From assembly GCA_049472335.1 (NCBI GenBank), contig JBLIRO010000021.1, positions 1,766-65,765 on the forward strand: a stretch of DNA of 64,000 bases. Reading direction: 5' to 3'. Every line of letters starts with the position of its first letter. Within the stretch, counting starts at the first letter, position 1. A program made the position numbers and the translations under genes. Source of the DNA: a bacterium (GTDB lineage: Bacteria > SZUA-182 > DTGQ01 > JAFGSM01). Below, piece by piece: positions 6,189 to 49,201 of the stretch. The notes beneath the pieces were generated by a model. The model had not been told where the DNA came from and did not search any database. It worked only from the letters and a program-made list of their open reading frames with translations.

Positions 6189-6265
6189 GGCGGTGTAGCT
6201 CAGTCGGTTAGAGCATGCGGCTCATATCCGCAGTGTCCGGGGTTCAAATCCCTGCACCGCCACCA
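6189..6265 (+). tRNA. tRNA with anticodon CAT (elongator Met, or Ile2 if lysidine-modified)
   Basis: 77-nt cloverleaf folded by hand. Acceptor GGCGGTG/CACCGCC. D arm GCTC-AGTCGGTTA-GAGC. Anticodon stem TGCGG/CCGCA with loop CTCATAT. T arm CGGGG-TTCAAAT-CCCTG. Encoded CCA. It lacks the three consecutive G-C pairs of initiator anticodon stems. Confidence 0.85.
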
Positions 6266-12012: not shown

Positions 12013-12723
12013 ATGGTTTGGTTCTTTAAAAAGGAGCAAAATATGTCTTTTACCAATGAACATGAATCAGAAAATGATGAAAGCAGTATTCTAGTTGTCG
12101 ATTTCCAGCCGATTGTTCGTCTGGGTCTTATTCAACTTATCAACAATAGCAGAGGTCTTAAGGTCTGCGGTGAAGCAGAAAATGCTCATGAAGCCCTGGA
12201 ACTTATTAAAGTACTGAAACCTGACATGGCTATTGTTGACATTTCTATTAAAGGTGTCGGCGGTATCGAACTTATCGAAACGATAAAGCTGCAGTATCCC
12301 AATTTTCCCATACTGGTCTTTTCCATGCTGGATGAATCTTTTTATGCGGAACGGGTCCTTAAAGCGGGCGCCATTGGTTATCTCATGAAGCATGAGGCAT
12401 TAAAAAACATAATAAACGCAATCCGCTGTGTTCTGCTTAAAGAGATCTTCGTGAGTGAAAAGATATCAGCAAATATCATGTATAGGGCCTTATATAACAA
12501 ATCCAATGGTTATTCTTTTCCTATGCAGCTTCTCAGCAACCGTGAACTGGAGGTCTTTCGTTTAATCGGCCAGGGCTATAAGACCAGACGAATAGCAGAG
12601 AAGCTGAACATAAGCACAAGAACAGTTGAAGCTTATCGTATGCATATCAAAGATAAATTGAATCTAAATTCAGGGGAGGATTTACTCCGTCAAGCCATTA
12701 AATGGATAAAAAACGAGAGATGA
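12013..12723 (+). CDS. NarL/LuxR-family response regulator (REC + LuxR-type HTH)
   Basis: 236 aa. REC domain (VVDFQP, phospho-acceptor MAIVDISIKG, SMLDE, GYLMK). C-terminal LSNRELEVFRLIGQGYKTRRIAEKLNISTRTVEAYRMHI. No histidine kinase nearby. Confidence 0.85.
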   Translation: MVWFFKKEQNMSFTNEHESENDESSILVVDFQPIVRLGLIQLINNSRGLKVCGEAENAHEALELIKVLKPDMAIVDISIKGVGGIELIETIKLQYPNFPILVFSMLDESFYAERVLKAGAIGYLMKHEALKNIINAIRCVLLKEIFVSEKISANIMYRALYNKSNGYSFPMQLLSNRELEVFRLIGQGYKTRRIAEKLNISTRTVEAYRMHIKDKLNLNSGEDLLRQAIKWIKNER

Positions 12724-13110: not shown

Positions 13111-13908
13111 ATGAAACGTTTTAAAAAAAGGTATTTTTGGGGATTATTTGGTGCTATAGTTTTAATAGGGTTCTTATTCATTGTAAATTTTTGCTTTGTA
13201 CAAGAATTGACTATTATTCCTAAAGCAAATGCACAAGCATTTCAATATAATTGGGGCGGCGTTGGTACCGGAGGATCTCATGAATTAGCCGGTTATTTCC
13301 CAAGTGATTTAAAGGAAACCATAACTACTTGTAGCGGAGGATGTACAGAAACCGCCTCCACCTGTGCGTGGGACTGTGGCGCCACTTTCTCTCAATGCGG
13401 ATCAGGAAGCGGACAAAGATCCGGAGCCGGGCTATTGGGCGGAAGCTATACTTTCGGCATTTGTTCCACTTCCACAACTTGTGGCAACAGCTTATTTGGC
13501 AGTTGTATGAGCGGAAGCTATACTTTCGGAGTTTGCCTAAGGACTGAGATTCCCACATCGAATACCTGCAGCAGCGGCATCTTCTGTGGCGGAGGCGGCA
13601 ATATCACATTACTGACCTGCGGAAGCAGTCCATATAGCAGTTGTGGCATTGGTAGCTATACATACAGCACCTGCAATGTCGGTTGTGGTTATATAATCCC
13701 TACAACCAAGACCTGCAATTGTAGAAAGGAACCAAAATGGCAATGGGGTTCGGAATATACTAACAGTATTTGTCCTATAGCTACTGGTACAACTTGTGAT
13801 GGATATTGCGCATTACCGATTCCGGGAGTTATTTTATATGATTACACCGGAATTAACGATTATACCAACATGTCCAATTATACAGTTTCTACCCCACCCG
13901 CATTTTAA
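13111..13908 (+). CDS. secreted Cys/Gly/Ser/Thr-rich repeat protein (GSYTFGxC repeats), function unknown
   Basis: 265 aa. Strong RBS AAGGAGG. Signal/anchor peptide ending ANA-QAFQYNW. 20 Cys in the mature part. Repeated GSYTFGIC / GSYTFGVC / GSYTYSTC units with near-identical DNA at about 13441 and 13513. Confidence 0.7.
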   Translation: MKRFKKRYFWGLFGAIVLIGFLFIVNFCFVQELTIIPKANAQAFQYNWGGVGTGGSHELAGYFPSDLKETITTCSGGCTETASTCAWDCGATFSQCGSGSGQRSGAGLLGGSYTFGICSTSTTCGNSLFGSCMSGSYTFGVCLRTEIPTSNTCSSGIFCGGGGNITLLTCGSSPYSSCGIGSYTYSTCNVGCGYIIPTTKTCNCRKEPKWQWGSEYTNSICPIATGTTCDGYCALPIPGVILYDYTGINDYTNMSNYTVSTPPAF

Positions 13909-14382: not shown

Positions 14383-15996
14383 ATGTTAAAACTTATACCA
14401 AATAAGCTTTTATGTTCTAAATGGGCCCATCTGTCTATTATTATATCTTTAATATTTTTATTGACATCTTCATTTACTTCGGCTGTTGATAATCAAATCC
14501 AATATCCAACAATAAATCTTCCTGGATTGTTTAAACCATCGGGCTTTCCATATCAACCGCCCTTTTTTTCTTATACAAATTATACCTTCGATCCCATACG
14601 ATCCTCATTAAATTCTTCTTTTAAATTGGAAAGCAATTATTCCATACCCTTTTCACAGTTCGGCATTAGTAATTATTCTTTTCAGTTTCTACCAAACCGG
14701 ACTTCTGGTAGTATTTCCTCCTCTCTTTTTGAGAGTCTCACTTTCTCATATAAAAATCCCCTTAATTTATTTAACTACCAGCCTTCGTTTACACAATTTC
14801 CAAATAACACAAATTTCAATATACCTTATGTAGGATCATTAATGCCCAATATGGGATATATGCCACATGTTTTTCCCAGTGATAAATTTATATATAGTTA
14901 TTATCCTGGAGATATTTATGGTCAAAAGACACCTGCCCATCTGACGACGAGCCTTCCGCAAAAGCCTGGTGAAATCATCGGTACCATAGGAATAATAACT
15001 GATATACATTATTCCGACAAAGATTCCACTGACAGGCGTTCTCAATTTTCATTAAGTGGTCCCCGTTTTTACAGTGAAGCCGCTAACGACCTGGCCGATT
15101 TTGTCGACAAGATGAATTCTATGGGAGTTGATGCAATAATTGAGCTGGGCGATTTCATAGATATCCATTCAGGAAATTCCGCAGAAGAAGGCAACACCAA
15201 CACGCATGACGACGGGGCCCACGGAGAGGCAATATTATTCGAGGCAGAATCTATTTACTCAAAACTTGTCATGCCGTATTATCACGTTATTGGCAACTGG
15301 GATATGTATGATTATGATTTTGCCACTGCTGATGAATGGTTCCGCCACATTATCAATGGCACTCCCGAAACCATCGTAAGCCTTGGGGGAAAACTTTATA
15401 CCGATGCAATTGGTAATCCTGTAAGCAGGTATTACGCATTTAAATTTGGTGAAGTTCTGGGTATAGCGTTGGATTCTTCCGGCACTAATGCCTTAAGAGA
15501 CAACTATTTGATGCATACCACAGGGATAAACGGAACGGGTTTTGTCCCCGGGAAGCAGCTTGACTGGCTTGAAGATGTGCTGGCGGACAATAGAGATGGC
15601 GAAAACATGCCCGTTATAGTATTTATTCATCCTTTTTTATATCCGGAATTCATGGGGAATAATTATTATATGTGCAGAAATTACCTGGATGTTCGAGATA
15701 TTCTTGAAGCCGATGATAATGTGCTGGCTGTATTTAACGGTCATCATCATCCCGGTGCGGATGGTTGGTGGGAGGATACTCAAGATAATCCCGATTCTAA
15801 TGTTTATCATGCAGCCACCGGTGTATTTGGCGAAAAACACAAGGGTATCAAATACTATAATCTGAGAGGATCAATTATCGGATGGGGTTCCGATTCCTCA
15901 GGCCCAATTGAAGAGCCTTCAAATGTTTATTATGTTTTGACAGTGGAGAGAGGAGAGTCGATTTCCATTAAGGTTGAGACTTTTAGTACCAATTAA
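14383..15996 (+). CDS. secreted calcineurin-like metallophosphoesterase with N-terminal aromatic/Pro/Asn-rich low-complexity region
   Basis: 537 aa. Signal peptide. Low-complexity region at about residues 35-175. Phosphoesterase motifs DIHYSD, GDFID, GNWD, FIHP and GHHH. Confidence 0.8.
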   Translation: MLKLIPNKLLCSKWAHLSIIISLIFLLTSSFTSAVDNQIQYPTINLPGLFKPSGFPYQPPFFSYTNYTFDPIRSSLNSSFKLESNYSIPFSQFGISNYSFQFLPNRTSGSISSSLFESLTFSYKNPLNLFNYQPSFTQFPNNTNFNIPYVGSLMPNMGYMPHVFPSDKFIYSYYPGDIYGQKTPAHLTTSLPQKPGEIIGTIGIITDIHYSDKDSTDRRSQFSLSGPRFYSEAANDLADFVDKMNSMGVDAIIELGDFIDIHSGNSAEEGNTNTHDDGAHGEAILFEAESIYSKLVMPYYHVIGNWDMYDYDFATADEWFRHIINGTPETIVSLGGKLYTDAIGNPVSRYYAFKFGEVLGIALDSSGTNALRDNYLMHTTGINGTGFVPGKQLDWLEDVLADNRDGENMPVIVFIHPFLYPEFMGNNYYMCRNYLDVRDILEADDNVLAVFNGHHHPGADGWWEDTQDNPDSNVYHAATGVFGEKHKGIKYYNLRGSIIGWGSDSSGPIEEPSNVYYVLTVERGESISIKVETFSTN

Positions 15997-16235: not shown

Positions 16236-16251
16236 TGGTATGTCCTTTGCT
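16236..16251 (+). promoter_or_regulatory. sigma54-type -24/-12 promoter candidate (TGGTATG-tcct-TTGCT)
   Basis: GG at 16237-16238 and GC at 16249-16250, with the canonical spacing of TGGCACG-N4-TTGCW. About 270 nt upstream of the small-peptide ATG. rpoN is encoded in this window. Confidence 0.45.
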
Positions 16252-16520
16252 CTATAAATTAGCATAAAGATTAACCCCTGGGGAATGTGTAGAATTTCCG
16301 TTCGACATGGCTTCGGATCACAACTGAGACCTTATAACTGCATCCGTTATGTCGTCTGTTGAATCTGCACAAGTTACTTTAATCCGTAACCTTTAAAATA
16401 ATCAGGAGGGAAACATTATAAAGTAACATCTTAAAGACACGGTACCATTTAAAACAGATCTGATATTTTTTGTTGATATTTTTATCATCCAAAGATTACC
16501 TTAAGAAGGAGGGAAATATT

Positions 16521-16721
16521 ATGCAATATTTGAATGTGTCTCAACCCGCATATGCCACATATTATTATGATGACGGAAACTGGTGTGGGAATAGTTTTGA
16601 TTTCTGTAACAGAATTGGTTACGGCTCAGGATTCAATGTTGGCTTTGGTACTGGTACGGGCAATAACGTCCTTTGTGTTACACCTTTGGAATACGGGGAA
16701 ATCGGAAGAGCTGTTCTGTAG
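16521..16721 (+). CDS. 66-aa Gly/Tyr/Asn/Cys-containing peptide, candidate RiPP precursor
   Basis: The ATG at 16521 lies 7 nt after a strong RBS (AAGGAGGG). Sequence: MQYLNVSQPAYATYYYDDGNWCGNSFDFCNRIGYGSGFNVGFGTGTGNNVLCVTPLEYGEIGRAVL. No signal peptide. It sits immediately upstream of YcaO. The ORF track starts it at an upstream TTG (16470). Confidence 0.6.
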   Translation: MQYLNVSQPAYATYYYDDGNWCGNSFDFCNRIGYGSGFNVGFGTGTGNNVLCVTPLEYGEIGRAVL

Positions 16722-16732
16722 TACCTTACAGT

Positions 16733-16767
16733 TGGGATGGGTATGCCCAAAAGGCATGCCCATCCTA
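16733..16767 (+). terminator. strong stem-loop between the peptide gene and ycaO (attenuator or processing hairpin)
   Basis: GGATGGGTATGCC (16735-16747), loop CAAAA, then GGCATGCCCATCC (16753-16765). This gives 13 bp with one G-U pair. There is no clean U-tract after it. Confidence 0.55.
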
Positions 16768-16824
16768 TTCCCCTTTAGGAGCCAAAACAAAAGTAAAGGA
16801 TAAGAGAAAAGGAGATGGAAAAAG

Positions 16825-18705
16825 ATGTTTCAAACATTAAAAAGACCTTACAAAGAATCTAACGCATATGAAACAATAGAGAAGATCAGGAATATATTGA
16901 ATACAGCGGATCTGGCTCCCAGAGTGGTTTTTCACGCCAATCCCTATCCCCAGATTCATTCCGTAAGATTGGAGTTGGATGAAACAAAAGGGGGTTTTGG
17001 GACAAACGGGAAGGGTCGAGACAAAGAGTATTGCTTTGCCAGCGGATACGCTGAATTTATCGAAAGGATGCAAAACGGGCTTTATGCCAACTTTTCACGC
17101 ACAATGATGAAAGGGATCAAAGAAAAACACGATTTTTTCTATGCCCCGGATGAGAGATATATCTCCAAAGAAGAATTCCTGCAACTTCCTGACGAGATCG
17201 TTTCGGACATAATTCATCGCGGCGGCAGGGATAAGATAAAATTTATCGAATCATATTTCAACCGTTTGAAGGTTAACAATGTCTCCGGGGTTGTTTCTTT
17301 ACCTTTTTATGATACAAAAAATGACAGAGAAATATTTCTTCCCCTCAATCTCCTTTTGCTTGCTGTAGGATCTACAGGGATGGCTGCAGGAAACACCAAT
17401 ACAGAGGCAATTTTTCAGGCCATTTGCGAGATTATGGAAAGATGGGGAGCCGCTGAGATATTTTACAACCAGTTGACCCCTCCAACTATCCCTGACGAAT
17501 TTCTTAAACAGTTTGAAGAGGAATACAAGATCATAGAAAACATCAGAAAGAGCGGGAAATACAAAGTCACAATAAAGGACTTTTCCGCCAACAGGAGAAT
17601 CCCCGCGGTAGGGATTATTATCGAGCATCCTGAATCACAAAAATATAAACTTAATGTGGGATGCGACACTTCATTCCAGGTGGCTCTCAGCCGCTGCCTT
17701 ACCGAAATTTATCAGGGCAGGATGAATGATAAGGTTTTCGATGAAGGCCTTCTTGATATCCCTAAGGAGGTGGCGGATTATTTTAAAAATGATGATCCCG
17801 TGTCGCTTTATAAAAGATATTCGGTTTTTGCGAGTTTCACCCATGACGGCAGCGGGATATTCCCTAAAAGCCTTTTTGATGACAAATTCGATTACCCTTT
17901 TGATTCTTCAATATTCGGCACAAAAAAATCCTATGACACTGAGGTGAAAACACTCATAACCAATTTCCATAAAATGGGATACAACGTATATATAAGGGAT
18001 GTCTCTTTCATGGGCTTTCCATCGGTTTTCGTTTATATCCCCAGGGTATCCGTCAAGGGGGTAAAAAACGCGCCTATACAGAATAATAGCGATACCTTTA
18101 GTGTCATTGAACTGGACAAAATAGAGCCCATGGTCTTCAATCTTAAAAACTGTAACGATGATGAGCTGCAGCAGATCGCCGACACTCTGGATAAACTTGC
18201 AGGCCAAATCAAGTTTAATGAGCTTTTTAACGTCGATCTGAAACCCATGTCTCCATGGAAAAATCTTGAAGTCTCCTTTCTTTTGACTCTGATATGGTAT
18301 AGATTGGGAGCCCTGGATAAAGCCAGGTTGAGCTTCAAGTTGTTTTTAAAAGAGCAGAAAGAGGAAAAGGAGTATTATAAGATCGTCGATCAATACCTCG
18401 ACCTTAAAGTAAAAGGGATCGATGAAGAAAAGATCGCGCAGAAGATCCTCAAGAAAGGATTCGATCAGAAACTGGTCGAAACAGTTATGCAGGATATGTC
18501 CGATCCAGATGAGATCTTTAAATACATCAAGCTTCCAAAATGCCCTGACTGCTCCGGTTGTGAGCTGCAAAATGATTGTTTGACCAACGGCAAACAGGTC
18601 ATTGCTCACAATATTTACCCTATAATGAAGGAGAATGAAATTGACCAGATAAGATTATCCTTAATTCTCAACGGGGCCGAAGAAGGGCCTGAAGAAGGAG
18701 ATTGA
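16825..18705 (+). CDS. YcaO-domain protein (ATP-dependent peptide backbone-modifying enzyme superfamily)
   Basis: 626 aa. N-terminal YcaO signature TNGKGRDKEYCFASGYAEFIERM. Overall layout resembles long stand-alone YcaOs with a helical C-terminal region. C-terminal CPDCSGCELQNDC cluster. Confidence 0.85.
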   Translation: MFQTLKRPYKESNAYETIEKIRNILNTADLAPRVVFHANPYPQIHSVRLELDETKGGFGTNGKGRDKEYCFASGYAEFIERMQNGLYANFSRTMMKGIKEKHDFFYAPDERYISKEEFLQLPDEIVSDIIHRGGRDKIKFIESYFNRLKVNNVSGVVSLPFYDTKNDREIFLPLNLLLLAVGSTGMAAGNTNTEAIFQAICEIMERWGAAEIFYNQLTPPTIPDEFLKQFEEEYKIIENIRKSGKYKVTIKDFSANRRIPAVGIIIEHPESQKYKLNVGCDTSFQVALSRCLTEIYQGRMNDKVFDEGLLDIPKEVADYFKNDDPVSLYKRYSVFASFTHDGSGIFPKSLFDDKFDYPFDSSIFGTKKSYDTEVKTLITNFHKMGYNVYIRDVSFMGFPSVFVYIPRVSVKGVKNAPIQNNSDTFSVIELDKIEPMVFNLKNCNDDELQQIADTLDKLAGQIKFNELFNVDLKPMSPWKNLEVSFLLTLIWYRLGALDKARLSFKLFLKEQKEEKEYYKIVDQYLDLKVKGIDEEKIAQKILKKGFDQKLVETVMQDMSDPDEIFKYIKLPKCPDCSGCELQNDCLTNGKQVIAHNIYPIMKENEIDQIRLSLILNGAEEGPEEGD

Positions 18706-18709
18706 ATCC

Positions 18710-20527
18710 ATGAAAACCCAATATCCCCATAAAGGCATATTCTCTTTTTTGCTGAAGCGCCTTGGAGGGTCCCCTCCAATAGAAAAGGCCCTGGAGGTGG
18801 TGAAGAGAGAGGTAAAAAAATACAGGCGGCTCATTTTTCTGGGAGCAGTGCTTATGTTCCTCGGCGCCCTTTTACTACTTCCCCTTCCCTTTATAATGGG
18901 AAAAATCATCGATATAGTATTACCCCAAAAGAATGTCAGGCTGCTTTTGACAGCTATCGGCATTCTGTTGGGAGTGAATATTATTGCGTCTATTATAAAC
19001 TACTTTCAGGAAGTACTTTTTTTTAAGATCAACAACAAGATGATCATCGATATCCGGAAGGCCCTTTTTCAAAAGGTCAACCGTCTTCCATTATTCATTA
19101 CGAAATCCTGTAATACCGGTTATCTGATGTCCAGGATCAAGGATGATCCCCCCCGCCTGGCTGCTTTGTTCGGGGAGAAGCTCATCCAAATGGTGAAACA
19201 GTTTTTTGTCTTCATCGTTTGCTTGAGTGCCCTCTTTTATATCAGTTGGGAATTGGCGTGCATCACCATCGCGGTCTTGCCTTTTTTCTTGTATACCGTT
19301 TATTACTTCGGGAAAAAGATCAAGAAGCAATCGGAGACGGTTTTCGAACGTGTCGCCGTAAACAGCAAATCCTTGCAGGAAAATCTCGACATGGTTGAAC
19401 TATGCAAGTCTTTTGGCAGGGAGGCCTTCAATACCAGGCGTTATCTGAGGGAAATCATAAAGACCTTAAGGGATTTTATAGTCCTAAAAAAACTGGAAAG
19501 CTTAAACAGTGTTATACTCGGATTTATCGGTGCAATTCTTCCGTTGAGCATACTCGGATACGGTGGATATAAGATCATCGCGGGGACATTCAGCATTGGT
19601 ATGCTTGTCACCTTTATAAGCCTGTTAAGCAATGTAGTCAGCCCGGCGTCCAGCCTGATAGGATTCAATATCGAAATACAAAAATTAAAGGTCGCCCTCA
19701 TACGTGTCGGAGAAATCCTGCATTTGCCGGAAGAGCCGGAAGCGGAGGGAATAGACTTCAGACCTGTGGATTCATTGAATGTAGATCATTTAATGTTCTC
19801 TTATAATGGTCTCAAACCTGTGCTGAAGAATATTACCCTAAATGCCGGGAAAGGGGAAAAAATAGGCATTGTCGGGGCCTCGGGCTCCGGAAAGACCAGT
19901 CTTGCCAGAGTTGTTTCCGGTTTGTATCAGTTCGCCGGAACGATCAGTATCAATGATTATCCGGTTGGCGCCATGCAAAGCAAAACACTGAGAAAAAATG
20001 TTGCCGTGGTGCCGCAGGAACCCTTTTTATTCAACGACTCTATCTATGCCAACGTTGCCTTCGGAAAACCGCGCGCTACTGAGGAAGAAGTAAGGGATGC
20101 GTTAATCAGGGCCAATGCCTGGGAATTCATCGAAAAAATGAAGGATAAGGAAAGGACCCTGGTAGGGGAGCGTGGAAACAGTCTTTCAGTGGGGCAGAAA
20201 CAAAGAATTGCAATTGCCCGGGCACTGATTAAGGATACGGATATACTTATCCTGGATGAGGCCACCTCCAATGTGGACAACATCTCGGCAAAAATGATAG
20301 CCGATGCCATAGATGATATATCAAAGCAAAAAATCATATTCATCATCGCTCACAATTTAGACTCAGTGACAACCTGCGATAAGATCATATACTTAAAAGA
20401 TGGGATTATCTCAGAAGAAGGAAGCCACGAAGAGCTCTTAGCCAAACAAGGGGATTATGCCGGACAATACAACAAACATATTCATTCACTTAAAAAGCCA
20501 CAGATGGAAGCTATGGCAGTCTCATAG
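18710..20527 (+). CDS. ABC exporter, fused 6-TM permease + ATPase (no N-terminal peptidase domain)
   Basis: 605 aa. Starts 4 nt after the YcaO stop. Walker A GASGSGKTS, signature LSVGQKQR and Walker B ILILDEAT. Confidence 0.9.
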   Translation: MKTQYPHKGIFSFLLKRLGGSPPIEKALEVVKREVKKYRRLIFLGAVLMFLGALLLLPLPFIMGKIIDIVLPQKNVRLLLTAIGILLGVNIIASIINYFQEVLFFKINNKMIIDIRKALFQKVNRLPLFITKSCNTGYLMSRIKDDPPRLAALFGEKLIQMVKQFFVFIVCLSALFYISWELACITIAVLPFFLYTVYYFGKKIKKQSETVFERVAVNSKSLQENLDMVELCKSFGREAFNTRRYLREIIKTLRDFIVLKKLESLNSVILGFIGAILPLSILGYGGYKIIAGTFSIGMLVTFISLLSNVVSPASSLIGFNIEIQKLKVALIRVGEILHLPEEPEAEGIDFRPVDSLNVDHLMFSYNGLKPVLKNITLNAGKGEKIGIVGASGSGKTSLARVVSGLYQFAGTISINDYPVGAMQSKTLRKNVAVVPQEPFLFNDSIYANVAFGKPRATEEEVRDALIRANAWEFIEKMKDKERTLVGERGNSLSVGQKQRIAIARALIKDTDILILDEATSNVDNISAKMIADAIDDISKQKIIFIIAHNLDSVTTCDKIIYLKDGIISEEGSHEELLAKQGDYAGQYNKHIHSLKKPQMEAMAVS

Positions 20528-20841: not shown

Positions 20842-23800
20842 ATGAAGTCATTATTAAAAGGCTTAACAGTATTTCTTACCCTCCTAGTTTTGTCACCCAT
20901 ACTCAGCTCACCTGCCATAGCACAGTTAAATTTTTACTTCCCGGACTTTTGGCCGCCAGAATATTTACGAGACTTACAAACCTACTCGCGCCCAGCCACT
21001 ATCAAAAAAAGTGATATACTTGTTGATGACTTTGAGTATTCGGACAGCCCTTACAATCATGGGTGGATGGGATCTGATATTTATGGTGGCGGTTTTACCA
21101 AAATATCGATGGATTCGCAAATAAATAGTCTTGTACTTGATGCTTATAGGCCTCATTCCAATTTCTTAGTTTACACACCCTCTTCAATGCGAAAGATCTC
21201 GTATAACCTTTTTACACCCCTGAGCCTTAATAAACCTAATGGTGAGTCAGGCATAAGTATGGATACAAATCCGGTTTTAAGCCTTCTTTTCAGGTCCCTT
21301 CATGACAATGAGTCATGGGATCTATTTTTACTCGATGTTATTGGAGAAGATACAAGCGGTGAAAGGACTATTACCGTCACAATCAAGATAGGGCCTATGG
21401 AACAGCCTTGCGGAACTTCCGTAGGATCTTTAAAGGGCAATGAATGCATATTTGACATAAGAGCTGCTGTTACCGGTTTTAATCCTTCAGGGCAATTACA
21501 GGTCACTGCTACTATCAATCGGAGTATGCTCGATGGTTCATGGCATACCGTGCATGTCGATTTGGTTAAAGCAGTAAAGACCGCCGTAGCTGTATTCAAT
21601 GAGATAGATGATTCCGATAAATCTGATTGGCATATAGCCAGGGCGAACTCAATTGAAATAAGAGGCTGGAAATTTCGTTTGGACAATATCATATTCAGGT
21701 CTAAGACAGGCGGGAAGTTTCTCGAGTCTCCCGATCTTTTCGAAATGGGCCCTCTGTATAACCAAATATTTGAGCCTTACAGGTTTCTGTTTATTGCGGA
21801 TTCTCAGGGGGAAGGGATATTGGTCCATGACAAGAACAGCCAGGCAAATAAAATTAAACAGATCACAGACCTTATGCTCAATCCTGACAATTTCCTTCTT
21901 GTGGAAGACCCTAACGATCCCAATGATCCTGTCGTGAGATACTGGACAGACGAAATGGGCGCGGACCCCAATCTCTTCGGAGAAAATGATCCTAACCTGG
22001 CGCAGAAATTTGACAGGAATTCGTTCGTTGTGGACCTTAACCTGGCTATCTTTGCTGATTCTAACCTTAGGATGGAGCCGGATGGTCCCGGAAGCCTGGC
22101 TGAAACTATCATTTCATCAGGCATTCTGGACTGGCATTCCACAGTTGGCGGATACGGCGCCTACGGCACTCAGTATTACTTGCTGCAACCACTCCCGATC
22201 TATCCTTATGACGGTATGCCGACTTTTCTGCCGGCCCGCTATTCTCTCATAGACGTCATAGGGAAATACGGCAAGCCCTATTACTCCCCTGAACACGTCC
22301 GTATGCTCGAAGGAGCTCTTTGGAATTCGGGAATCACTGCGTGGCCTAACATTGCGGCCCTTGATTATACACCGCAGTATTTTGAAGACATGATCGTGAC
22401 CATTGAGGTTACTAACGGGATAGATAGCGACGTGAGGACCTTCCCTATCAGTGTGACCAACTATCCGGTTGAGAATTATCCGCCAGTGCTCCAGTTGGAT
22501 GCAGTGTTCCGGTTGAATATCGGGGAGTTAGTCTTCTATGTGGATGATATTAATGAATATGCATTTAATGTAATCGATCCTGATTGTTTCATCTTCTCAT
22601 TGTCATCTGATCCGCCAACTACACATGTACCAGGAATCCCTATGCATGAAGATTACAGGACCGATATGGACGGGCTCAGTTGGGGTATTGACACGATAAC
22701 AATTAACGGACAACTATCTTCATTGTTTACTACTTATCATTATATAGGTCCCTGGTATGACTGTAGTATCTTTAGTTCATTGATGGATGATTTTGACTAC
22801 TGTTATTTCCAGGATACCGGTTTGATTCAGTTTACACCACGGTCTGAAAAAACTCTAGGAATTGAAATCATTGCCAGTGATTTGAGGGGGGGCAATTCCA
22901 CCATTGAATTGAAAATCAATTGCGTTTCCTGGTCAGACACCGATGAAGACGGTATTCAAGATTCACTGGACAACTGTCCCTTTTTAGCAAACCAATGTCA
23001 ATTTGATTCGGATGAAGATGGTATAGGTGATGAATGTGATATCTGCCCTGAAGCCTTCGACCCTAATCAGGAGGATCTGGACAGCGATGGAACCGGTGAT
23101 TTATGTGATAACTGTCCCGGCACTCCCAATACGGATCAGTTGGATAATGACAAGGATAATATAGGTAACGCATGCGATACATGTCCGGGTGATATCAATA
23201 ATGACGGGGACGGGGATGGCTGGTGCGGCGACATAGACAACTGTCCGAATATCTGGAATATGGATCAGGAGGATAAGGATGGAGACGGTATAGGCAATCC
23301 CTGCGATAATTGCCCTGACTACTCCAATCCTGATCAAGGGGATTCAGACGGAGATGGAATCGGTGACGCATGTGATAACTGTCCGCATTTTCCGGATTCT
23401 AACCTGCAGGATACTGATGGGGACGGCATCGGGGATGTGTGCGACAACTGCCCTAATGCAGTCAATCCCGGTCAGGTTGACCAGGACAATGATGATATGG
23501 GCGATGAATGCGATGTATGTCCCAATGATTTTACAAACGATGAAGACGGGGATAATGTCTGCGGCATGACAGACAATTGCCCCGGACTTTCCAATCCTGA
23601 TCAAAAAGATAAGGACAATGACGGAATCGGGGATGTGTGTGATAACTGCCCTAATGGTCTAAATCCTGACCAAACGGACAAAGACTGGGACGGCATAGGA
23701 AATGTATGCGACAATTGCGTGTATGCATCCAATCCTGAACAGATTGACAAGGATGGAGATGGTATAGGTGATCCGTGTGATAATTGTCCGGATATATCCA

Positions 23801-24354
23801 ATCCTTTTCAAGACGACACGGACAAGGACGGACTGGGGAATGTATGTGATAAATGCCCATCCATATCCGATTATAAACAAAAAGATATGGATGGTGACGG
23901 AATCGGGGATATGTGCGATAACTGCCCGGAGGCTTTTAATCCTGACCAGGCGGACTCAGATGGAGACAATATAGGTGATGCCTGTGATACTCCATCTACT
24001 CAACCTGAAAAAAAGCAAAGCAAGACAATCCTGCCCTATTATCAATTCCGGCAGCAATTTCCATGGTTTTCAAGTTTTATGCCTTATAATCTTTTAGGAT
24101 ATCGCTATGGCGCCATCTATAGCTCATTATTTGATAATACCCAAAACCCGTTTTTGATAAATACCTTCCAGCAGGGAGATTATGCACAGAATAATTTCTT
24201 ATATCCCATAAATACGACAAATTACGGATCTTCTTTTTTACCGAACCTTTTGACCCATTCAGCCCCTTGGGCTTGGCATGGTTCTATATATTACTATGAC
24301 CAAAGCGGTCTCCCTCTGGGTTTTAATCAGTATTTACCGAAGCCATTACAGTAA
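20842..24354 (+). CDS. large secreted protein with 16 thrombospondin type-3 (Ca-binding) repeats and an aromatic-rich C-terminal tail
   Basis: 1170 aa. Signal peptide ending AIA-QLNFYF. About 670 aa of unrecognised N-terminal region. A DxDxDGxGDxCDNCP repeat array. The C-terminal ~108 aa are Y/F/N/P-rich. Confidence 0.85.
22936..23988 (+). repeat. array of 16 coding thrombospondin type-3-like repeats
   Basis: Counted by hand from [15 protein letters not shown] to [12 protein letters not shown]. The array generates many spurious alternative-frame and antisense ORFs in the track. Confidence 0.9.
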
Positions 24355-24587
24355 GAAGTAAGTCTAAAACTTCGTCTGAAGTTTTGATATATTATTTAAA
24401 TAGTTTGTATAATATCTAAAGGACCCCTTGAAACATATTTTTAATTCGGAAAAATATTAGAATTTTACATATTATCCTATTGCTTTTTACTTTTTGCTTT
24501 AAAATAGATTTGCTCGGTTGTTTGTGACTCTTAAAGTCACGGAAGTTTGATTAAAATTCAAAAAATATTTAAAGGTGGGATATCGAT

Positions 24588-26330
24588 ATGATTACAAGGA
24601 CGCAAGTAAAGGATCTACGTTACTATCTTCTAATCTTTTTATTATCAACCATAATACTTTTCTCACTTCTTATCATTAGGATAAACTTCAGCCATGCATA
24701 TTTTTCCCCTTATCCAGCATTCTTTCAGCCCCCATGGCAACAGATACCATATTTTAGCCCTGTGTTTCCTGGAAGCGTTATTCCACCCCAATACCCATAC
24801 TCAAACTTATACCCAAGATTTGCTCGATCCAATACAAATTATCCTGCATCCTTCTATCCCAATTTCGGAGGCTTCGGGTTTTTGCCTTACAGGTCCTATA
24901 ATAGTGCTTATAGCTTACCCCTGACTTCTCAATTACCCTTTTATACACCTGCAAATCCGGCCTCAATGTATACCCTTTTCAACAATCCCGGCCTTGCCAG
25001 CGCCTATTTACGCCCGGATCCTCAATGGAGGATAGGCAAAGAGGTAACCCCTTCACCACCGCCAACTCCCGGCATGGGAACCGGTATAGAAACAGGTCAA
25101 TTAAGGATCGGGGCCACAGCCAGTCAAAGACGTGGCACTAACAGTTCGATCGTTCCTTCATATGTTAACCGCCAGTTGATTGTTATGTTCCGTCCTGAAG
25201 TCCCGCCACAGGAAAGAATGGCAGTGCTTGGCAAGCATAACTGCACGGAAATAAGAACAAGCGCCTATGGAGGATTTACACTCATTGCGCTCTCATCCTT
25301 TCAGAGTGTGCGTGACACCGCGGAGCAATTTTCAATGGAACCATCCGTGCTTTATGCGGAGCCTAATTATTACAGACGTGCCCATCTTCTCCCAAACGAT
25401 CCCTATTACGTTTATCAATGGCATTTTCCCTGGCCGCACCTGGCCACCCCCCTGTCTTGGGACATAAACACAGGAGCAGGAGTGACTGTAGGGCTGCTCG
25501 ATTCCGGCGTTGCCTACCGCACTGCCGCGCCTTATGCACAGGCCCCGGACCTTGCAGGCACTTTGTTCGCTCCGGGCTGGGACTTTGTGAACGCGGACGC
25601 ATTTCCTGACGACGATTACGGGCATGGGACCCATATGTGCGGCTGTATCGCGCAAACCACAAACAACTTATTGGGCGTGGCAGGAGTGGCGTTTTCCTCC
25701 ACCATAATGCCTGTAAAGGTCATGGATAGTTTGGGAGATGCCACTATTGCGGACGAGGCTGACGGAATATATTTTGCAACTAATAATGGGGCAAGGGTTA
25801 TAAACATGAGCTTCGGAGGAGTCGGGACATCCGCCACAGAAGAAGCAGCTTTGGTATTCGCCTATAGCCAGGGGGTGACGCAACTGGGTTCATCCGGAAA
25901 TGCCGGATCAACCGTGCCGGAATATCCGGCAGCCTATCCGGAATGTATTTCCGTAGGAGCAGTTCAGTATGATCAAACCAGAGCCCCTTATTCAAATTAC
26001 GGGGTAGAGTTGGATCTCGTAGCCCCCGGAGGAAACATTACTCTGGACCAGAATTTTGATGGATACGGTGACGGAATTTTACAGCAAAGACATGATGGAG
26101 TAAACTTTACATCCTTCTATTATGAATTTATGGAAGGAACATCCCCTGCCTGCGCGCTGGCAGCGGGTGTGACCGCCCTTGTGATCAGCAAAAGCACGGC
26201 CGTGTTAACACCGCTTCAGGTTACAAATATCCTTCAGACCACCGCGACTGATCTGGGCGTAGTCGGCTGGGACCAGGAATACGGATGGGGAGAAGTCTAC
26301 GCCTACGGAGCCCTCCTCAATACCCCTTAA
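24588..26330 (+). CDS. secreted subtilisin-like serine peptidase (S8) with N-terminal low-complexity region and I9-like propeptide
   Basis: 580 aa. Catalytic triad motifs GLLDSGV (Asp), HGTHMCG (His) and GTSPACA (Ser). Low-complexity region YFSPYPAFFQPPWQQIPYFSPVFPG... at about residues 36-150. Confidence 0.9.
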   Translation: MITRTQVKDLRYYLLIFLLSTIILFSLLIIRINFSHAYFSPYPAFFQPPWQQIPYFSPVFPGSVIPPQYPYSNLYPRFARSNTNYPASFYPNFGGFGFLPYRSYNSAYSLPLTSQLPFYTPANPASMYTLFNNPGLASAYLRPDPQWRIGKEVTPSPPPTPGMGTGIETGQLRIGATASQRRGTNSSIVPSYVNRQLIVMFRPEVPPQERMAVLGKHNCTEIRTSAYGGFTLIALSSFQSVRDTAEQFSMEPSVLYAEPNYYRRAHLLPNDPYYVYQWHFPWPHLATPLSWDINTGAGVTVGLLDSGVAYRTAAPYAQAPDLAGTLFAPGWDFVNADAFPDDDYGHGTHMCGCIAQTTNNLLGVAGVAFSSTIMPVKVMDSLGDATIADEADGIYFATNNGARVINMSFGGVGTSATEEAALVFAYSQGVTQLGSSGNAGSTVPEYPAAYPECISVGAVQYDQTRAPYSNYGVELDLVAPGGNITLDQNFDGYGDGILQQRHDGVNFTSFYYEFMEGTSPACALAAGVTALVISKSTAVLTPLQVTNILQTTATDLGVVGWDQEYGWGEVYAYGALLNTP

Positions 26331-26364
26331 GGGACAGAGTTATACCCCTTAAGGGACGGAGTTA
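26321..26364 (+). repeat. 22-bp tandem duplication spanning the S8 peptidase stop codon, plus a third partial copy at 26401-26415
   Basis: TACCCCTTAAGGGACAGAGTTA followed by TACCCCTTAAGGGACGGAGTTA, then TAAGGGACGGAGTTA. Confidence 0.85.
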
Positions 26365-26403
26365 GTTTATTAGTTTAAGGTATAATCAGAGGGTCTGCAA
26401 TAA

Positions 26404-26452
26404 GGGACGGAGTTAGGATTAAACAGGAATGCCCCGTCCCTTTTTCTTTTTT
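26404..26452 (+). terminator. hairpin + T-run terminator candidate for the S8 gene (overlaps the 3' end of the convergent PEP-CTERM gene)
   Basis: GGGACGG (26404-26410) pairs with CCGTCCC (26434-26440) and is followed by TTTTTCTTTTTTC. The loop is long (23 nt). Confidence 0.4.
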
Positions 26453-27096
26453 CTTATGGCCGCAAGTCCTAAAACGCCGAATAGAAGAAAAACAAAACTT
26501 GATGGTTCAGGGACCGGCGCATAAAAATAATTAACTATCATTTCCCCATTAAACACACAATCAGAAAATTCATATTTTTTGCCCAAATCATCGTATATAA
26601 CACCAGGAAAAATATCTTTAAATACATTTGTAAGGGAAACGGAAGTATCATTTTCTTTTAAGGTAAAGAAAGACAGAATGTCGGGATTGGAATAAAATTC
26701 ACCTTGAATACCCCAGGTCCCCGCACCTGTCATTGCTTGCCCATCACCATTGAATGAACATAATCCATCTCCATCGCCAAAATCGAATTCCTGATGTATT
26801 CTTGACCCTAAGTTTATGTTTTCAACCTTTAAGATATATTGGTTTTCATAATAAAATGCCAATCCTTCAACATTATTACTATATGGAGGAGGATCGACAG
26901 ACTGATAATAAAACCAGCCATCTGAATATGTTTCCACAAGTACTTTCTCTAAGGTTCCAAGGGCTGAGTCAAACAAAAAATCCTGTGCGTCCAAAACATT
27001 ACCAATAGATAAATTTCTGCTAATATTGGCTGCTTTTGCCAAGGAGATAAAAGACGATAAACTAAAAATAATTAATAACATTAAAATCTTTCTCAT
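26419..27096 (-). CDS. PEP-CTERM-sorted secreted protein
   Basis: 225 aa. Signal peptide. The C-terminus VPEPSSFVFLLFGVLGLAAIRKKKKGRG is the PEP motif + TM helix + basic cluster of exosortase substrates. Confidence 0.75.
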   Translation of the reverse strand: MRKILMLLIIFSLSSFISLAKAANISRNLSIGNVLDAQDFLFDSALGTLEKVLVETYSDGWFYYQSVDPPPYSNNVEGLAFYYENQYILKVENINLGSRIHQEFDFGDGDGLCSFNGDGQAMTGAGTWGIQGEFYSNPDILSFFTLKENDTSVSLTNVFKDIFPGVIYDDLGKKYEFSDCVFNGEMIVNYFYAPVPEPSSFVFLLFGVLGLAAIRKKKKGRGIPV

Positions 27097-46792: not shown

Positions 46793-48187
46793 ATGCAAAA
46801 AAGAAATATATTAACAAATTATATAAAGTCAACCTTTTTAATTGTTATTAGTTTATTCTTAGGATGTGCTGGTACCTTAAGAAAAGCGCCACTAGAAAAA
46901 CACGACTCGCATTTTATTCTTAGGGAGTATCCAAAACATGGAATTGTATATTTTTATAAAGAGAAAAAAGGTTTAGGTTCTATATATATAAAAGCTAATG
47001 GAAAAAGGATAGGCGCATTGAATAATGGAACATATTTTGTTTATTTAGCAGAACCCGGTCAAAATATATTTTCTGTAGAAGATAATTTGAGAGAATCCCC
47101 TTCACAAACAATAAATATTGAACCTAATAGAGACTATTATTTTCGAGGCAGTATTAAAAGAGGTTTTTGGGACGCTGTACCCTATTTAGAAAGAGTAGGC
47201 GAGATTCTAGGTAGAGGTACCATTTTGGGGTTGACTTATGCAACACTTGAAAAACCACCTGCTTCCACAAATACAATAGAAGCTTATGAAGAATTCTTAA
47301 AGCAATATCCAGCCAGAAATTATATGCAAAAAAAAGAAATAAAATGGTTTATAAGGGGGAAAAAAAATGATAACTCACCAGATTATTTATTTATATTAGA
47401 TAATGGATACTCGTTTAATGGGGAATTGGCAGATGATTTTATTTATCTTATAGATTCCTCAGGGGAGCGAAAAAAGATAAGTTCTAATGATATTATCTCA
47501 ATATATGCAATTGGCTTGGAAACTAAAAGGTTAGAATTGAAAGAAAACAAAATAAAGGGAACTATCATTGGAGAGATTAAAATAAGAACAAAAAAAGGCG
47601 GTTTAATAATCGATCCAAAAAATTTAGCTTTTTACCATTCCCATATAACAAGATCAGCTAACGAAATATCAAGACTAGAAATTATAGAGAATCAAAAAAT
47701 TATGTTTTGGGAGAGCAAAAAGACTTCCGATTCGATAAAAGGCACAATAATACCAGAATATTGGATAAGCAAAGTATTTACATTAAATAATCCACGTTAT
47801 TCACCAATTATTGATGATCCCTTTGAGCCAATAGAATTTTCATTTGACTTTCAAAAACATTCGGATATAAGTGATAATACTTTAATCATATTCCGGATGA
47901 TTATTTTAAAGGAAGGCGGTTTTGGAGGATTTGAAACGTTGGCTTTTGATTATACACCATTATCTATTTCAATAGGAGAAACAAAAAAAATAGACTTAAA
48001 TATAACCCTTGCTTATAAATCATTTACTAAATCGCTTAAGGGAAAGGGATATTTAGAACTGTTTGTTGTTCCCAACGCTGGGACATCTTATAGATTCCTA
48101 ACAGATAAGATTAAGATTTTTAGAACGATTAGTAACGTTCTGAGATTACCCATTGAAATCAAAAATAATAAAAATATAAAATCCTGA
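46793..48187 (+). CDS. putative lipoprotein with DUF2846-like N-terminal domain, function unknown
   Basis: 464 aa. Lipobox-like LFLGC. Visibly AT-rich, Lys/Ile/Asn-rich coding sequence. No catalytic motif. Confidence 0.55.
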   Translation: MQKRNILTNYIKSTFLIVISLFLGCAGTLRKAPLEKHDSHFILREYPKHGIVYFYKEKKGLGSIYIKANGKRIGALNNGTYFVYLAEPGQNIFSVEDNLRESPSQTINIEPNRDYYFRGSIKRGFWDAVPYLERVGEILGRGTILGLTYATLEKPPASTNTIEAYEEFLKQYPARNYMQKKEIKWFIRGKKNDNSPDYLFILDNGYSFNGELADDFIYLIDSSGERKKISSNDIISIYAIGLETKRLELKENKIKGTIIGEIKIRTKKGGLIIDPKNLAFYHSHITRSANEISRLEIIENQKIMFWESKKTSDSIKGTIIPEYWISKVFTLNNPRYSPIIDDPFEPIEFSFDFQKHSDISDNTLIIFRMIILKEGGFGGFETLAFDYTPLSISIGETKKIDLNITLAYKSFTKSLKGKGYLELFVVPNAGTSYRFLTDKIKIFRTISNVLRLPIEIKNNKNIKS

Positions 48188-48341
48188 AATTAAAAAAAGC
48201 TATCAATTTCGCAGAGGTTAAGGATCTTGTCCTTCTCTTTCAAGTATCAAAGGAGAAGAGGTTTTGGGGGAATAGGATAGATGTTCGGTTTATTTAAAGC
48301 CTTATCAGGCCAAAAATATAATATTAAAAAGGTAAAATAAA

Positions 48342-48947
48342 ATGTTTTATTTCATAATGGGTGTGTTTATAATTGCTATTATTGCAACTTTTATTATATT
48401 GATCCGCCTGATGATTAGTAGTGAAGACCAAAAAGAGCCGATTGAGCCCAAAAACGAACAACAACAAGAAGATAATATTGAAGAAGATGTCTTTCAAGCA
48501 GGGGTAGCTAATAAATGCCCTTGCTGTGATTCAGAAAATCTTGAATTAAACCCAAAATGCGACTGTGGTTACGATTTTACAACAGAAAAAGTTCAAGAAC
48601 CATATATAAAGTTTGATGCTCTCATTAATATTGATAATTTAAAAAATGTAAAATTAAGAGAAGATTATAATAATATAGATTCTTCTAAATGTCTTATAAT
48701 TAAATGTAAAAAATGTGGAAATAAAAATACTTATTGTATCACATCTAAAGAAGATATATGTAAGATTCCTCTCACTGCCGGTGTTAGAATTATTAAAAGA
48801 CTAATGCCAGGCACTCTACTTCCACTTATAGTAACTCTCTTTATAAGCACTATACTAGCGAAGCTCCGCCTCAAACCGACAAGGTTAAAGACTGCTTTTC
48901 TGGCGGAGCTTCTCGATGCTGGCTTCTTGATGCTAGATACTGGATAA
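48342..48947 (+). CDS. membrane protein with two zinc-ribbon-like CxxC pairs, function unknown
   Basis: 201 aa with an N-terminal TM helix. CPCCDSENLELNPKCDC and CKKCGNKNTYC. The 3' end overlaps a long hairpin and a dispersed repeat, so the C-terminus is uncertain. Confidence 0.45.
   Translation: MFYFIMGVFIIAIIATFIILIRLMISSEDQKEPIEPKNEQQQEDNIEEDVFQAGVANKCPCCDSENLELNPKCDCGYDFTTEKVQEPYIKFDALINIDNLKNVKLREDYNNIDSSKCLIIKCKKCGNKNTYCITSKEDICKIPLTAGVRIIKRLMPGTLLPLIVTLFISTILAKLRLKPTRLKTAFLAELLDAGFLMLDTG
48855..48880 (+). repeat. 26-nt dispersed direct repeat, copy 2 (CTAGCGAAGCTCCGCCTCAAACCGAC)
   Basis: 24/26 identical to 37167-37192. Confidence 0.7.
48860..48912 (+). other. 11-bp perfect inverted repeat (GAAGCTCCGCC ... 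GGCGGAGCTTC) with a 31-nt loop
   Basis: Read directly. The 5' arm lies inside repeat copy 2. Confidence 0.6.
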
Positions 48948-49078
48948 ATACAAATAAAAAATATTCCTTGATTTGCTAGAATCCAGAGACTAGAAACCAG
49001 CATCGGTTCCATTTCACCTTAAATTAATCGCTAAAAACTTGATCATTTGTTAAGTTTTTAGTCTATAAAGGACAACTA

Positions 49079-49108
49079 GAGCCGCCCCACGAAAGAGTAA
49101 GGCGGCTC
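49079..49108. terminator. hairpin between convergent genes (possible bidirectional terminator)
   Basis: GAGCCGCC (49079-49086) pairs with GGCGGCTC (49101-49108), with a 14-nt loop. U-tracts are weak on both strands. Confidence 0.35.
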
Positions 49109-49201
49109 GAAGAGTATACAATTATGGGGAAAGATAACCCTCATTGATAAATATTTCAATCAATTGGGGGTGCATCTTAAACAATCTGCCGAATGTAATC
49201 A

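Follow-up and report, generated by a model that had tools for sequence, protein, structure and literature searches.

Genomic Organization of the YcaO Locus

The 64-kb window (the whole stretch of 64,000 nucleotides analyzed here, taken from contig JBLIRO010000021.1) carries on its + strand a three-gene operon, in which a short precursor peptide gene, an RNA hairpin, a gene for a YcaO enzyme and a gene for an ATP-binding cassette (ABC) exporter follow each other in this order. The locus is a real precursor/YcaO/exporter operon of the compact peptide-modification type. There is high confidence that the YcaO and the small peptide form a genuine enzyme-precursor pair. The operon contains the following features:

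16506..16512, + strand: Shine-Dalgarno sequence AAGGAGG of the precursor gene, read from the sequence, 8 nt 5' of the ATG and kept in the sister genome L001
16521..16721, + strand: precursor gene, 66 aa, MQYLNVSQPAYATYYYDDGNWCGNSFDFCNRIGYGSGFNVGFGTGTGNNVLCVTPLEYGEIGRAVL, from the open reading frame (ORF) call
16695..16718, + strand: conserved C-terminal tail G-E-I-G-R-A-V-L, proposed recognition and modification site, from tail counts and enrichment
16733..16767, + strand: RNA hairpin, probable attenuator or transcript-stabilizing stem, from folding energy, recurrence and covariation
16809..16814, + strand: Shine-Dalgarno sequence AAGGAG of ycaO, read from the sequence, 10 nt 5' of the ATG
16825..18705, + strand: stand-alone long-form ycaO, 626 aa, from Pfam and NCBIfam matches
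18541..18579, + strand: Cys4 motif C573-P-x-C576-x-x-C579-x5-C585 of the YcaO, candidate site for Zn or Fe-S, without variation across 32 aligned sequences
18710..20527, + strand: ABC exporter, 605 aa, with fused membrane and ATPase domains, from Pfam (ABC_membrane, ABC_tran) and NCBIfam

An initial annotation, made from the sequence alone, had described this locus as an operon resembling those of peptides synthesized ribosomally and modified post-translationally (RiPPs). This description is supported by the wider comparison: the YcaO is not of the housekeeping type, the small ORF is conserved as a class, and both the hairpin and the exporter recur at related loci. A translated small precursor gene and, beside it, the gene of a peptide-modifying enzyme are conserved together across genomes, as in RiPP operons generally. 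Some of its details can be given more precisely. The small ORF, which had been called strongly ribosome-bound, does have a strong Shine-Dalgarno sequence, and the wording can refer only to the strength of that site. Its position about 100 nt upstream of the 626-aa YcaO stands, with 103 nt computed between the peptide stop and the YcaO ATG. The hairpin, given as 13 bp, is present between the two genes and is computed as 15 pairs including two G-U pairs. The exporter ATG (18710) indeed lies 4 nt past the ycaO stop (18705). Pfam scans of the non-nested window ORFs of at least 120 aa agreed that the usual YcaO partners are missing, as no TfuA, ThiF/E1-like, nitroreductase/flavin mononucleotide (FMN) dehydrogenase or radical S-adenosylmethionine (radical-SAM) protein and no RiPP recognition element (RRE) partner or fusion was found. 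Pfam and NCBIfam likewise confirmed that the window exporter has no peptidase C39 domain.

The N-terminal body of the window precursor is hypervariable and rich in Gly, Asn, Tyr and Phe, with three cysteines (C22, C29 and C51) in addition to Ser and Thr. The precursor gene is the only tail-bearing small ORF of the window (n = 1). No Pfam or NCBIfam model matches it or the other family peptides (ten family peptides scanned, E up to 10). The peptide is 97% identical to that of L001, and the 12 nucleotide differences between the two genes amount to eight synonymous and two non-synonymous codon changes in frame; in the other two frames, the synonymous/non-synonymous counts are 0/10 and 2/7.

A Precursor Family with a Conserved C-Terminal Tail

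Relatives of the locus were collected by a protein search, a HMMER scan and a scan of one genome per species, and L081 was added as the closest relative with genomic context. The protein search yielded 326 YcaO relatives of about 615 aa (40-64% identity) from metagenome-assembled genomes and isolates, with Omnitrophota, Clostridia, Dehalococcoidales, Negativicutes, Desulfobacterales, Anaerolineae, Spirochaetales, Prevotellaceae and Aminicenantes among the named sources. The exhaustive HMMER scan gave 847 clusters at the 50% identity level (E <= 1e-30). The one-genome-per-species scan resulted in 80 loci; 34 of them carry orthologues of the window YcaO (36-93% identity), forming a clade separate from the remaining ones, a distant, radical-SAM-associated clade at 25-33% identity. 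The operon is thus no 'orphan', as it had been called, and belongs to a multi-phylum family found mainly in anaerobes.

When the window peptide was searched against the 80 loci by tblastn, the sister genome L001 was the only match. The precursor family was found by reading the C-termini of the small + strand ORFs upstream of each orthologous YcaO. In this way, 51 tail-bearing peptides were recognized in 30 loci (the window counted), with one to nine precursor genes each. Their N-terminal parts are mutually unrelated, and the shared end reads [E/D][T/I]-G-R-[P/A/S]-[V/I]-[L/I/V]-stop. Among the 604 small ORFs whose stop lies up to 2 kb upstream of the YcaO, 41 fit the strict pattern R[PAS][VILM][VILM]-stop, compared with six of 7586 elsewhere in the same loci, an enrichment of about 85-fold upstream of the orthologous YcaOs. 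If looser variants are included (L003, L004, L009, L016, L019 and L024), a candidate precursor is present in 29 of the 32 orthologous loci with sufficient upstream DNA. L029 is among the loci with no candidate; one doubtful ORF there ends in …SRPRM. The tail was not found in any distant-clade locus.

Among 46 unique tails, position -5 is Gly in 33 and position -4 is Arg in 40, while -3 is Pro in 31, Ser in seven and Ala in five, -2 is Val in 30 and Ile in ten, and -1 is Leu in 33 and Ile in seven. Acidic residues prevail at positions -7 and -8. For Arg all six codons occur and for Pro all four, with many of the Val and Leu codons in addition, and this synonymous diversity at every tail position indicates that selection acts on the protein and not on a DNA element. 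The conservation of the small ORF upstream of orthologous YcaOs, which had been proposed as a check of the RiPP-like description, is therefore found at the level of the tail class, through its enrichment, its codon diversity and the excess of synonymous changes between the window and L001. Representative precursors are the following:

Window: 1 precursor copy, …GEIGRAVL
L002: 2 precursor copies, …GEAGRPVL
L005: 1 precursor copy, …GSIGRPVV
L011: 8 precursor copies, …EETGRPVL
L012: 9 precursor copies, …EETGRPVL
L013, L014, L019 and L020 (Gln-rich bodies): 1 precursor copy each, …GDIGRPIV / IM / LV / LL
L021 (Cys-rich body): 1 precursor copy, …DNIGRPVL
Bacteroidales loci (Ala-rich bodies): 1-2 precursor copies each, …NRSVI / NRSIL / NRALI / ERAVI / ARPVL

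The organization of the closest relative with context, L081 (YcaO 62% identical), is the same as in the window. A called 62-aa gene, MRYLPENTV…QLFEGFGETGRPVL, ends in the tail GETGRPVL and is followed by a hairpin, the YcaO and an ABC exporter. Its body is Gln-rich and unrelated to the window body.

A YcaO family with this tail, or these precursors, was not found in full-text literature searches, although the few non-acidic relatives of E. coli YcaO mentioned in PMC13063428 might include it; that paper places these few relatives in putative RiPP clusters. The tail-bearing YcaO/peptide family is thus apparently undescribed so far.

Some of the loci have features of their own. In L011 (4627-5787, eight genes) and L012 (4434-5791, nine genes), tandem precursors of 41-52 aa combine an aromatic 'F/Y…YNNEKS' middle with the end EETGRPVL. 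These arrays have a GerE-type regulator and an Rce1-like (CPBP) intramembrane protease upstream, and an ABC exporter downstream. Rce1-like (CAAX-type) proteases clip C-terminal tripeptides. L004 is a plasmid of Haloimpatiens sp. FM7330 (47533-61374), on which an orthologous YcaO is accompanied by four precursors whose tails have no Arg (GKTVL, GEAIL, GETVL), a major facilitator superfamily (MFS) exporter and two SPASM radical-SAM genes. As it comes from a named isolate, experiments may be easiest with this member. In loci of the Desulfobacterota and Acidobacteriota type, the gene just upstream of the Gln-rich precursor encodes another conserved small protein, of 95-160 aa (L008:707-1078, L010:4993-5349, L013:1108-1455, L014:5088-5480, L019:4980-5459 and L020:5367-5654). 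It belongs to no Pfam family; a Met/Pro-rich N-terminal part, 'MMPMGGGM', leads into a predicted coiled coil, 'EEFQKQQLQFQHQQ…'.

The YcaO Enzyme

The window YcaO is a member of the YcaO superfamily (PF02624, E = 4e-48, 164.7 bits against a cutoff of 25.7) and also matches the YcaO_C family (E = 2e-7, 31.5 bits against 26.1). It can be divided into three parts: the YcaO ATP/Mg domain, a tetratricopeptide repeat (TPR)-like YcaO_C domain and the Cys4 tail. Its start codon is confirmed by an alignment to 31 homologues, in which M1, R7, Y9 and K10 are conserved. In the resulting 32-sequence alignment, S73, E77, E80, R81, E194, Q198, E202, E205 and R206 are invariant. The segments with these residues align to matching segments of E. 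coli YcaO, which we take to be its ATP/Mg-binding motifs, and the window enzyme appears to be catalytically intact and partner-free. The Cys4 motif is present in 34 of 34 orthologues and in many, though not all, members of the distant radical-SAM-associated clade. The protein ends in …NGAEEGPEEGD, with no PxPxP motif.

An AlphaFold2 model based on 32 homologues reached a predicted local distance difference test score (pLDDT) of 90.5 and a predicted template modeling score (pTM) of 0.90. It superposes over its full length on E. coli YcaO with a template modeling (TM) score of 0.75-0.81, and only through its core on azoline-forming and methanogen YcaOs (TM ~0.4). By sequence, the nearest solved structure is also E. 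coli YcaO (4Q84, E = 3.5e-30, 108 bits), over residues 15-409 only. The window YcaO thus has the fold of E. coli YcaO, yet is not of the ribosomal-protein type.

This distinction bears on the possibility that the enzyme is a housekeeping YcaO that modifies a protein, comparable to the modification of the ribosomal protein uL16, with the small ORF being incidental. The best NCBIfam match is NF040716 (YcaO_for_S12, an E. coli-type equivalog), E. coli YcaO is the best solved-structure match, and that enzyme acts on a protein substrate (PMC13063428). The NF040716 score is, however, 211 bits against a cutoff of 700, and the isoelectric point (pI) of 5.42 (orthologue median 5.8) differs from the ~4.4 of the uL16-modifying YcaO group, whose members have no adjacent small ORF (PMC13063428). 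In addition, a tail-bearing small ORF under protein-level selection is found at nearly all orthologous loci, ycaO is tightly linked to an exporter, and one orthologue is plasmid-borne (L004). Taken together, a housekeeping role is very improbable.

Clustering with the housekeeping E. coli type had been named beforehand as the outcome that would speak against a RiPP operon; besides failing that type by score and pI, the window YcaO is nearer to a YcaO of Porphyromonas gulae (P. gulae). The two are 30% identical over residues 7-615 (235 bits, E = 2e-73). The P. gulae protein, A0A0A2F9V0 ('BGC8' YcaO), is in turn 36.6% identical to ItfB and falls in the same similarity-network cluster, according to PMC10352776. 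ItfB belongs to the itf cluster of Bacteroides thetaiotaomicron (Clark & Seyedsayamdost, JACS 2022, summarized by PMC11002830 and PMC10352776). Through this P. gulae proxy, the window YcaO would be placed nearer to the group of Bacteroidales enzymes that includes ItfB, and less near to E. coli YcaO. The match to the methan_mark_1 (McrA-type) model reaches 45 bits against a cutoff of 365.

The Hairpin between the Precursor Gene and ycaO

The window hairpin consists of 15 pairs, including two G-U pairs, and a 5-nt loop. Its folding energy is -27.6 kcal/mol, in comparison with an average of -8.9 for shuffled sequences (z = -6.7). It is not followed by a U-run, and the terminator scan makes no call there. 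Of 27 related loci scored in the same way as the window, 20 have a significantly stable hairpin (z <= -2) directly 3' of their last precursor gene. U-tracts follow the hairpins in, for example, L004, L012, L023 and L026, and are missing in other loci.

A homologous stem (GGATGGRTAYG…) is shared by the window, L001, L081, L002 and L003. In the nine-sequence alignment A3, in which the pairing of L004 and L005 is under-counted, 84% of the cells of the homologous stem are paired and nine of the 15 pairs show changes on both sides. The covariation score was reached by none of 500 shuffles, and sliding the 3' partner lowered the pairing to 30-46%. A MAFFT re-alignment of six hairpins was set aside, as it misplaced the 3' arm of L003. 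One U-G pair of the window is a U-A pair in L001 and L081. The G-U pairs are located on the sense strand, which points to a role at the RNA level. No Rfam match was found at the hairpin or in the leader upstream of the precursor gene, the sole match in the window scan being one tRNA. The hairpin would fit partial termination or transcript stabilization, leaving the precursor mRNA in excess.

The Exporter and Neighboring Genes

A homologous exporter directly follows ycaO in L001 (96% identity), L006 (61%), L012 (52%), L011 (51%) and L021 (39%), and also in L081; in L006 and L021 the ycaO and exporter genes overlap. Clustering of the neighboring proteins leaves the peptide and the YcaO as the sole universally conserved pair. 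The other neighbors vary:

MFS exporter: L004
M48 peptidase: L023, L028, L033
M50-like peptidase: L016, L018
Rce1-like (CPBP) protease: L011, L012
SPASM radical-SAM enzymes: L004, L023, L027
No obvious partner: remaining loci

A regulator is encoded upstream of the window operon:

12013..12723, + strand: LuxR/NarL-type response regulator (Pfam Response_reg and GerE), possible operon regulator by weak association

A homologous LuxR/NarL regulator is found within 6 kb of ycaO in seven of the 34 orthologous loci, with histidine kinases alongside in L014, L016 and L021.

In an alternative interpretation, the peptide is no secreted product. It could be an intracellular cofactor precursor (compare pyrroloquinoline quinone, PQQ, and mycofactocin), a signal or a regulatory peptide, and the window ABC transporter accessory or devoted to another substrate. 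A transporter is near just ~11 of the 34 orthologous loci, two-component regulators are linked in 7-8 loci, and the spread across anaerobes would be expected of a physiological function. Only the extreme C-terminus is conserved, which is also true of the mycofactocin precursor MftA. Hypervariable bodies and arrays of eight or nine genes (L011 and L012) are, on the other hand, typical of diversified secreted products, and in the window, L006, L021 and L081 the exporter, at 4 nt distance, overlapping or nearby, co-diverges with the YcaO. Conserved redox or tailoring enzymes of the kind a cofactor pathway needs are not present either, so that an intracellular function is considered improbable.

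In four Bacteroidales loci, the gene right after the YcaO belongs to the lipoprotein pathway, with Lgt in three and signal peptidase II in one (L024:7887-8732, L026:7348-8175, L030:7832-8665 and L031:7897-8556). Several Bacteroidales precursors contain an Ala-rich hydrophobic stretch, some of them with Cys, which may be a coincidence or a link to lipoprotein processing.

Proposed Role of the Tail in Peptide Modification

The tail probably serves both as docking site and as modification site; it is the sole element common across phyla and contains no Cys, Ser or Thr. The absence of these residues also excludes an azoline within the conserved tail. A chemistry based on a small nucleophile is the likeliest, since ItfB (ammonia) and E. 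coli YcaO (sulfide, next to an Arg) work in this way. It is assumed that the 66-aa precursor is made in excess, with the hairpin attenuating or end-protecting the transcript. The YcaO would then read the free tail, acidic-acidic-[T/I]-G-R-[P/A/S]-[V/I]-[L/I/V]-COOH, and would for this reason need no E1-like, RRE or TfuA partner. With ATP/Mg, it would O-phosphorylate one of the backbone amides of the final three to four residues, which a small external nucleophile would attack: ammonia, giving an amidine as with ItfB, or sulfide, giving a thioamide as with E. coli YcaO and the methanogen enzymes. The variable N-terminal body would carry whatever activity the product has, and the modified peptide would leave through the linked ABC transporter.

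This course of events as a whole, from activation of a C-terminal amide by a YcaO guided by the tail, through attack of ammonia or sulfide, to export of the product, is judged fairly probable. The tail is also probably the site of the modification. The initial annotation had held that the chemistry could not be inferred; it is not wholly open, as the nearest characterized relatives use ammonia or sulfide. An amidine and a thioamide appear about equally likely, with a smaller share left for something else.

Several points weigh against this interpretation. The site and the type of the modification are deduced from sequence for every member of the family. In L003, L004 and L016, K, E, Y or L takes the place of the Arg at -4, and L007 and L044 have no recognizable precursor within 2 kb of the YcaO. 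About two thirds of the orthologous loci have no adjacent exporter, so export is no family-wide trait. The link to ItfB (WP_004319383.1) runs only through the P. gulae proxy, and P. gulae A0A0A2F9V0 does not have the full Cys4 motif. Finally, the tail could be a docking 'follower' only, with the modification elsewhere in the variable body.

If so, Cys, Ser or Thr of the N-terminal body would be cyclodehydrated to an azoline, or another amide activation would take place in that body. Such residues are available in the window peptide (C22, C29 and C51, with Ser and Thr) and in the Cys-rich peptide of L021, and follower-type recognition is known in bottromycin biosynthesis and is also mentioned in PMC12338566. 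Similarity to the SagD family is also detectable, but the score of 60.5 bits with the SagD/TOMM (thiazole/oxazole-modified microcin) model TIGR03604 is far under the 219-bit cutoff. The window contains no E1-like, Ocin-ThiF or RRE partner and no dehydrogenase, and the YcaO no PxPxP C-terminus. Many precursors, moreover, have no Cys and few or no Ser/Thr near their C-terminal half (the Gln-rich ones of L013, L014, L020 and L081), which makes a family-wide azoline chemistry unlikely. Follower-guided modification of the body is considered improbable, and use of the tail as both docking and modification site is preferred.

A more speculative extension, which we consider rather unlikely, combines a leader-independent recognition of the tail as a 'C-terminal tag' with an Fe-S cluster, bound by the Cys4 motif, that captures and delivers sulfide or ammonia. 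Such a delivery would explain a TfuA-independent thioamidation or amidination of the last residues of arbitrary peptides. In an exotic variant, the guanidine of the conserved Arg may itself attack, resulting in a new cyclic amidine.

YcaO enzymes are highly versatile editors of the peptide backbone, and most of the characterized ones need an E1-like/RRE protein, TfuA or a long leader. The present family pairs a partner-free YcaO with peptides that share just a five- to eight-residue C-terminal tail. In this YcaO-dependent ribosomal peptide pathway, the precursor family is new, the core is minimal, with two genes, and recognition is apparently tail-directed. Should the tail suffice for recognition, it would act as a portable tag for placing a C-terminal amidine or thioamide on arbitrary peptides. 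The family would also offer a simple genetic system for the nucleophile source of TfuA-independent YcaOs, a question still open for E. coli YcaO (PMC13063428). Its spread over many poorly studied anaerobic phyla makes it an untouched pool of modified peptides, and since Pfam and NCBIfam have no precursor model, annotation easily misses the genes or leaves them as hypothetical proteins.

Promoter Region and Other Genes of the Window

Upstream of the precursor gene, the following element was recognized:

16236..16251, + strand: candidate sigma-54 (-24/-12) promoter element, TGGTATGTCCTTTGCT, match to TGGYAY-N5-TTGCW

The sigma54-like promoter of the initial annotation is the sole TGGYAY-N5-TTGCW match in the window. 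By chance, 0.33 matches are expected per window, and 28 of 100 shuffled sequences contained at least one, so that the element is not significant alone. It is identical in L001, within a well-conserved leader, and it is conserved there only; no gene for an enhancer-binding protein was seen near the operon. The element stays a candidate promoter. A sigma-54 promoter as a family trait was rejected, since no locus other than the window and L001 has the pattern upstream of its precursor. The window itself encodes rpoN (56083-57552), which is part of a conserved lptC-lptA-lptB-rpoN-hpf-ptsN-hprK block (53739-59878). This block implies that sigma-54 and an outer membrane are present in the organism.

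A leader segment of ~155 nt (16284-16438), located after the sigma-54-like element and before the precursor gene, is missing from the otherwise collinear L001. It has no second copy in the window and gave no Rfam match, and it could be an insertion here or a deletion in L001.

Further upstream, two + strand genes belong to no Pfam family and are kept only in L001, at 81-82% identity. The first (13111-13908) encodes a protein of 265 aa, hydrophobic in a segment at its N-terminus and rich in Cys, Gly, Ser and Thr in its body, where units like 'GSYTFG[IV]C' are repeated, and the second (14383-15996) a 537-aa protein with weak metallophosphoesterase similarity. Downstream of the operon, the region 20842-27096 encodes a 1170-aa protein with many thrombospondin type-3 repeats, an S8 subtilase with a fervidolysin-like prodomain and, on the minus strand, a PEP-CTERM protein. 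The subtilase could process the peptide; it shows no linkage to YcaO in other loci. The tRNA of the window is located at 6189-6262, and the GC content of the window is 40%.

Comparison with Known YcaO Systems

The azoline-forming YcaOs of TOMM/LAP (linear azoline-containing peptide), cyanobactin and thiopeptide clusters have in common with the window an ATP-binding core and the gene order precursor, enzyme, exporter. Unlike these systems, the window has neither an E1-like/RRE partner or fusion nor an FMN dehydrogenase, and its YcaO does not end in PxPxP. The daptide enzyme DapY, which forms a C-terminal imidazoline, is likewise a YcaO that acts at the very C-terminus of its peptide (PMC12338566). 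DapY, however, carries a PxPxP motif and requires that DapBCDM first carry out decarboxylation, transamination and methylation; the window locus has none of these genes.

TfuA-associated thioamide YcaOs (thioamitides, McrA thioglycine) resemble the proposed mechanism in their ATP-dependent amide activation and external sulfur nucleophile, with no need of Cys, Ser or Thr at the site. These TfuA-associated and methanogen YcaOs are short (~380-400 aa) and do not have the TPR-like domain, in contrast to the 626 aa of the window YcaO. As no TfuA or ThiS-like gene is present within the 64-kb window, the locus falls outside the TfuA-dependent class. TfuA-independent thioamidation is known from anaerobes of sulfidic habitats (PMC13063428), and the hosts of the present family are mostly anaerobes of sulfidic or ammonium-rich habitats.

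E. coli YcaO thioamidates the ribosomal protein uL16 at Met82, with no TfuA and with sulfide in vitro, and its substrate is a folded, basic ribosomal protein and not a short peptide (PMC13063428). Like the window YcaO, it is a stand-alone enzyme composed of a YcaO domain and a TPR-like C-terminal domain (PDB 4Q84-4Q86). In uL16, an Arg directly precedes the modified residue (R81-M82, PMC13063428), and the tail of the window family also contains a conserved Arg. The window protein differs from E. coli YcaO by its pI of 5.4, its Cys4 tail, the adjacent conserved small ORF and the exporter.

With NH4Cl as the source, ItfB places a backbone amidine between Thr and Phe, the final two residues of ItfA, a peptide with a conserved C-terminal I-T-F; in PMC11002830, ItfB is also described as fused to an '[Fe-S]-recognition domain'. 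The tail motif of the window family is G-R-P-V-L in place of I-T-F, and peptides ending in ITF were not found in the 80 loci. A homology search started from a Bacteroidales YcaO returned no protein labelled B. thetaiotaomicron. The window also differs from the itf cluster in having no radical-SAM partner, Gly-Gly leader, C39 domain on the exporter or TonB component in the operon.

The distant YcaO clade is often flanked by SPASM radical-SAM genes and sometimes by Gly-Gly-leader peptides, which matches the radical-SAM and YcaO clusters of Bacteroidales. SPASM radical-SAM genes adjoin only three of the 34 orthologues (L004, L023 and L027), compared with many distant-clade YcaOs. The upstream peptides of this clade form another family, with a Gly-Gly-type leader and a '…DL[QED]EVTQTGKKK…' core (for example, L034:5608-5754, L046:5789-5926, L048:5702-5902 and L053:5765-5890), and many of these loci contain one to four SPASM radical-SAM genes, like the ItfB-type cluster architecture.

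ItfB, together with the BGC8 YcaO of P. gulae, and the window YcaO are all long-form enzymes of ~610 aa with no E1-like or TfuA partner. ItfB and the window enzyme also have in common small peptide substrates with a conserved motif at the extreme C-terminus and a hydrophobic last residue (in the window family, in 51 peptides), an ABC exporter in the cluster and a Cys-rich C-terminal element, as reported for ItfB.

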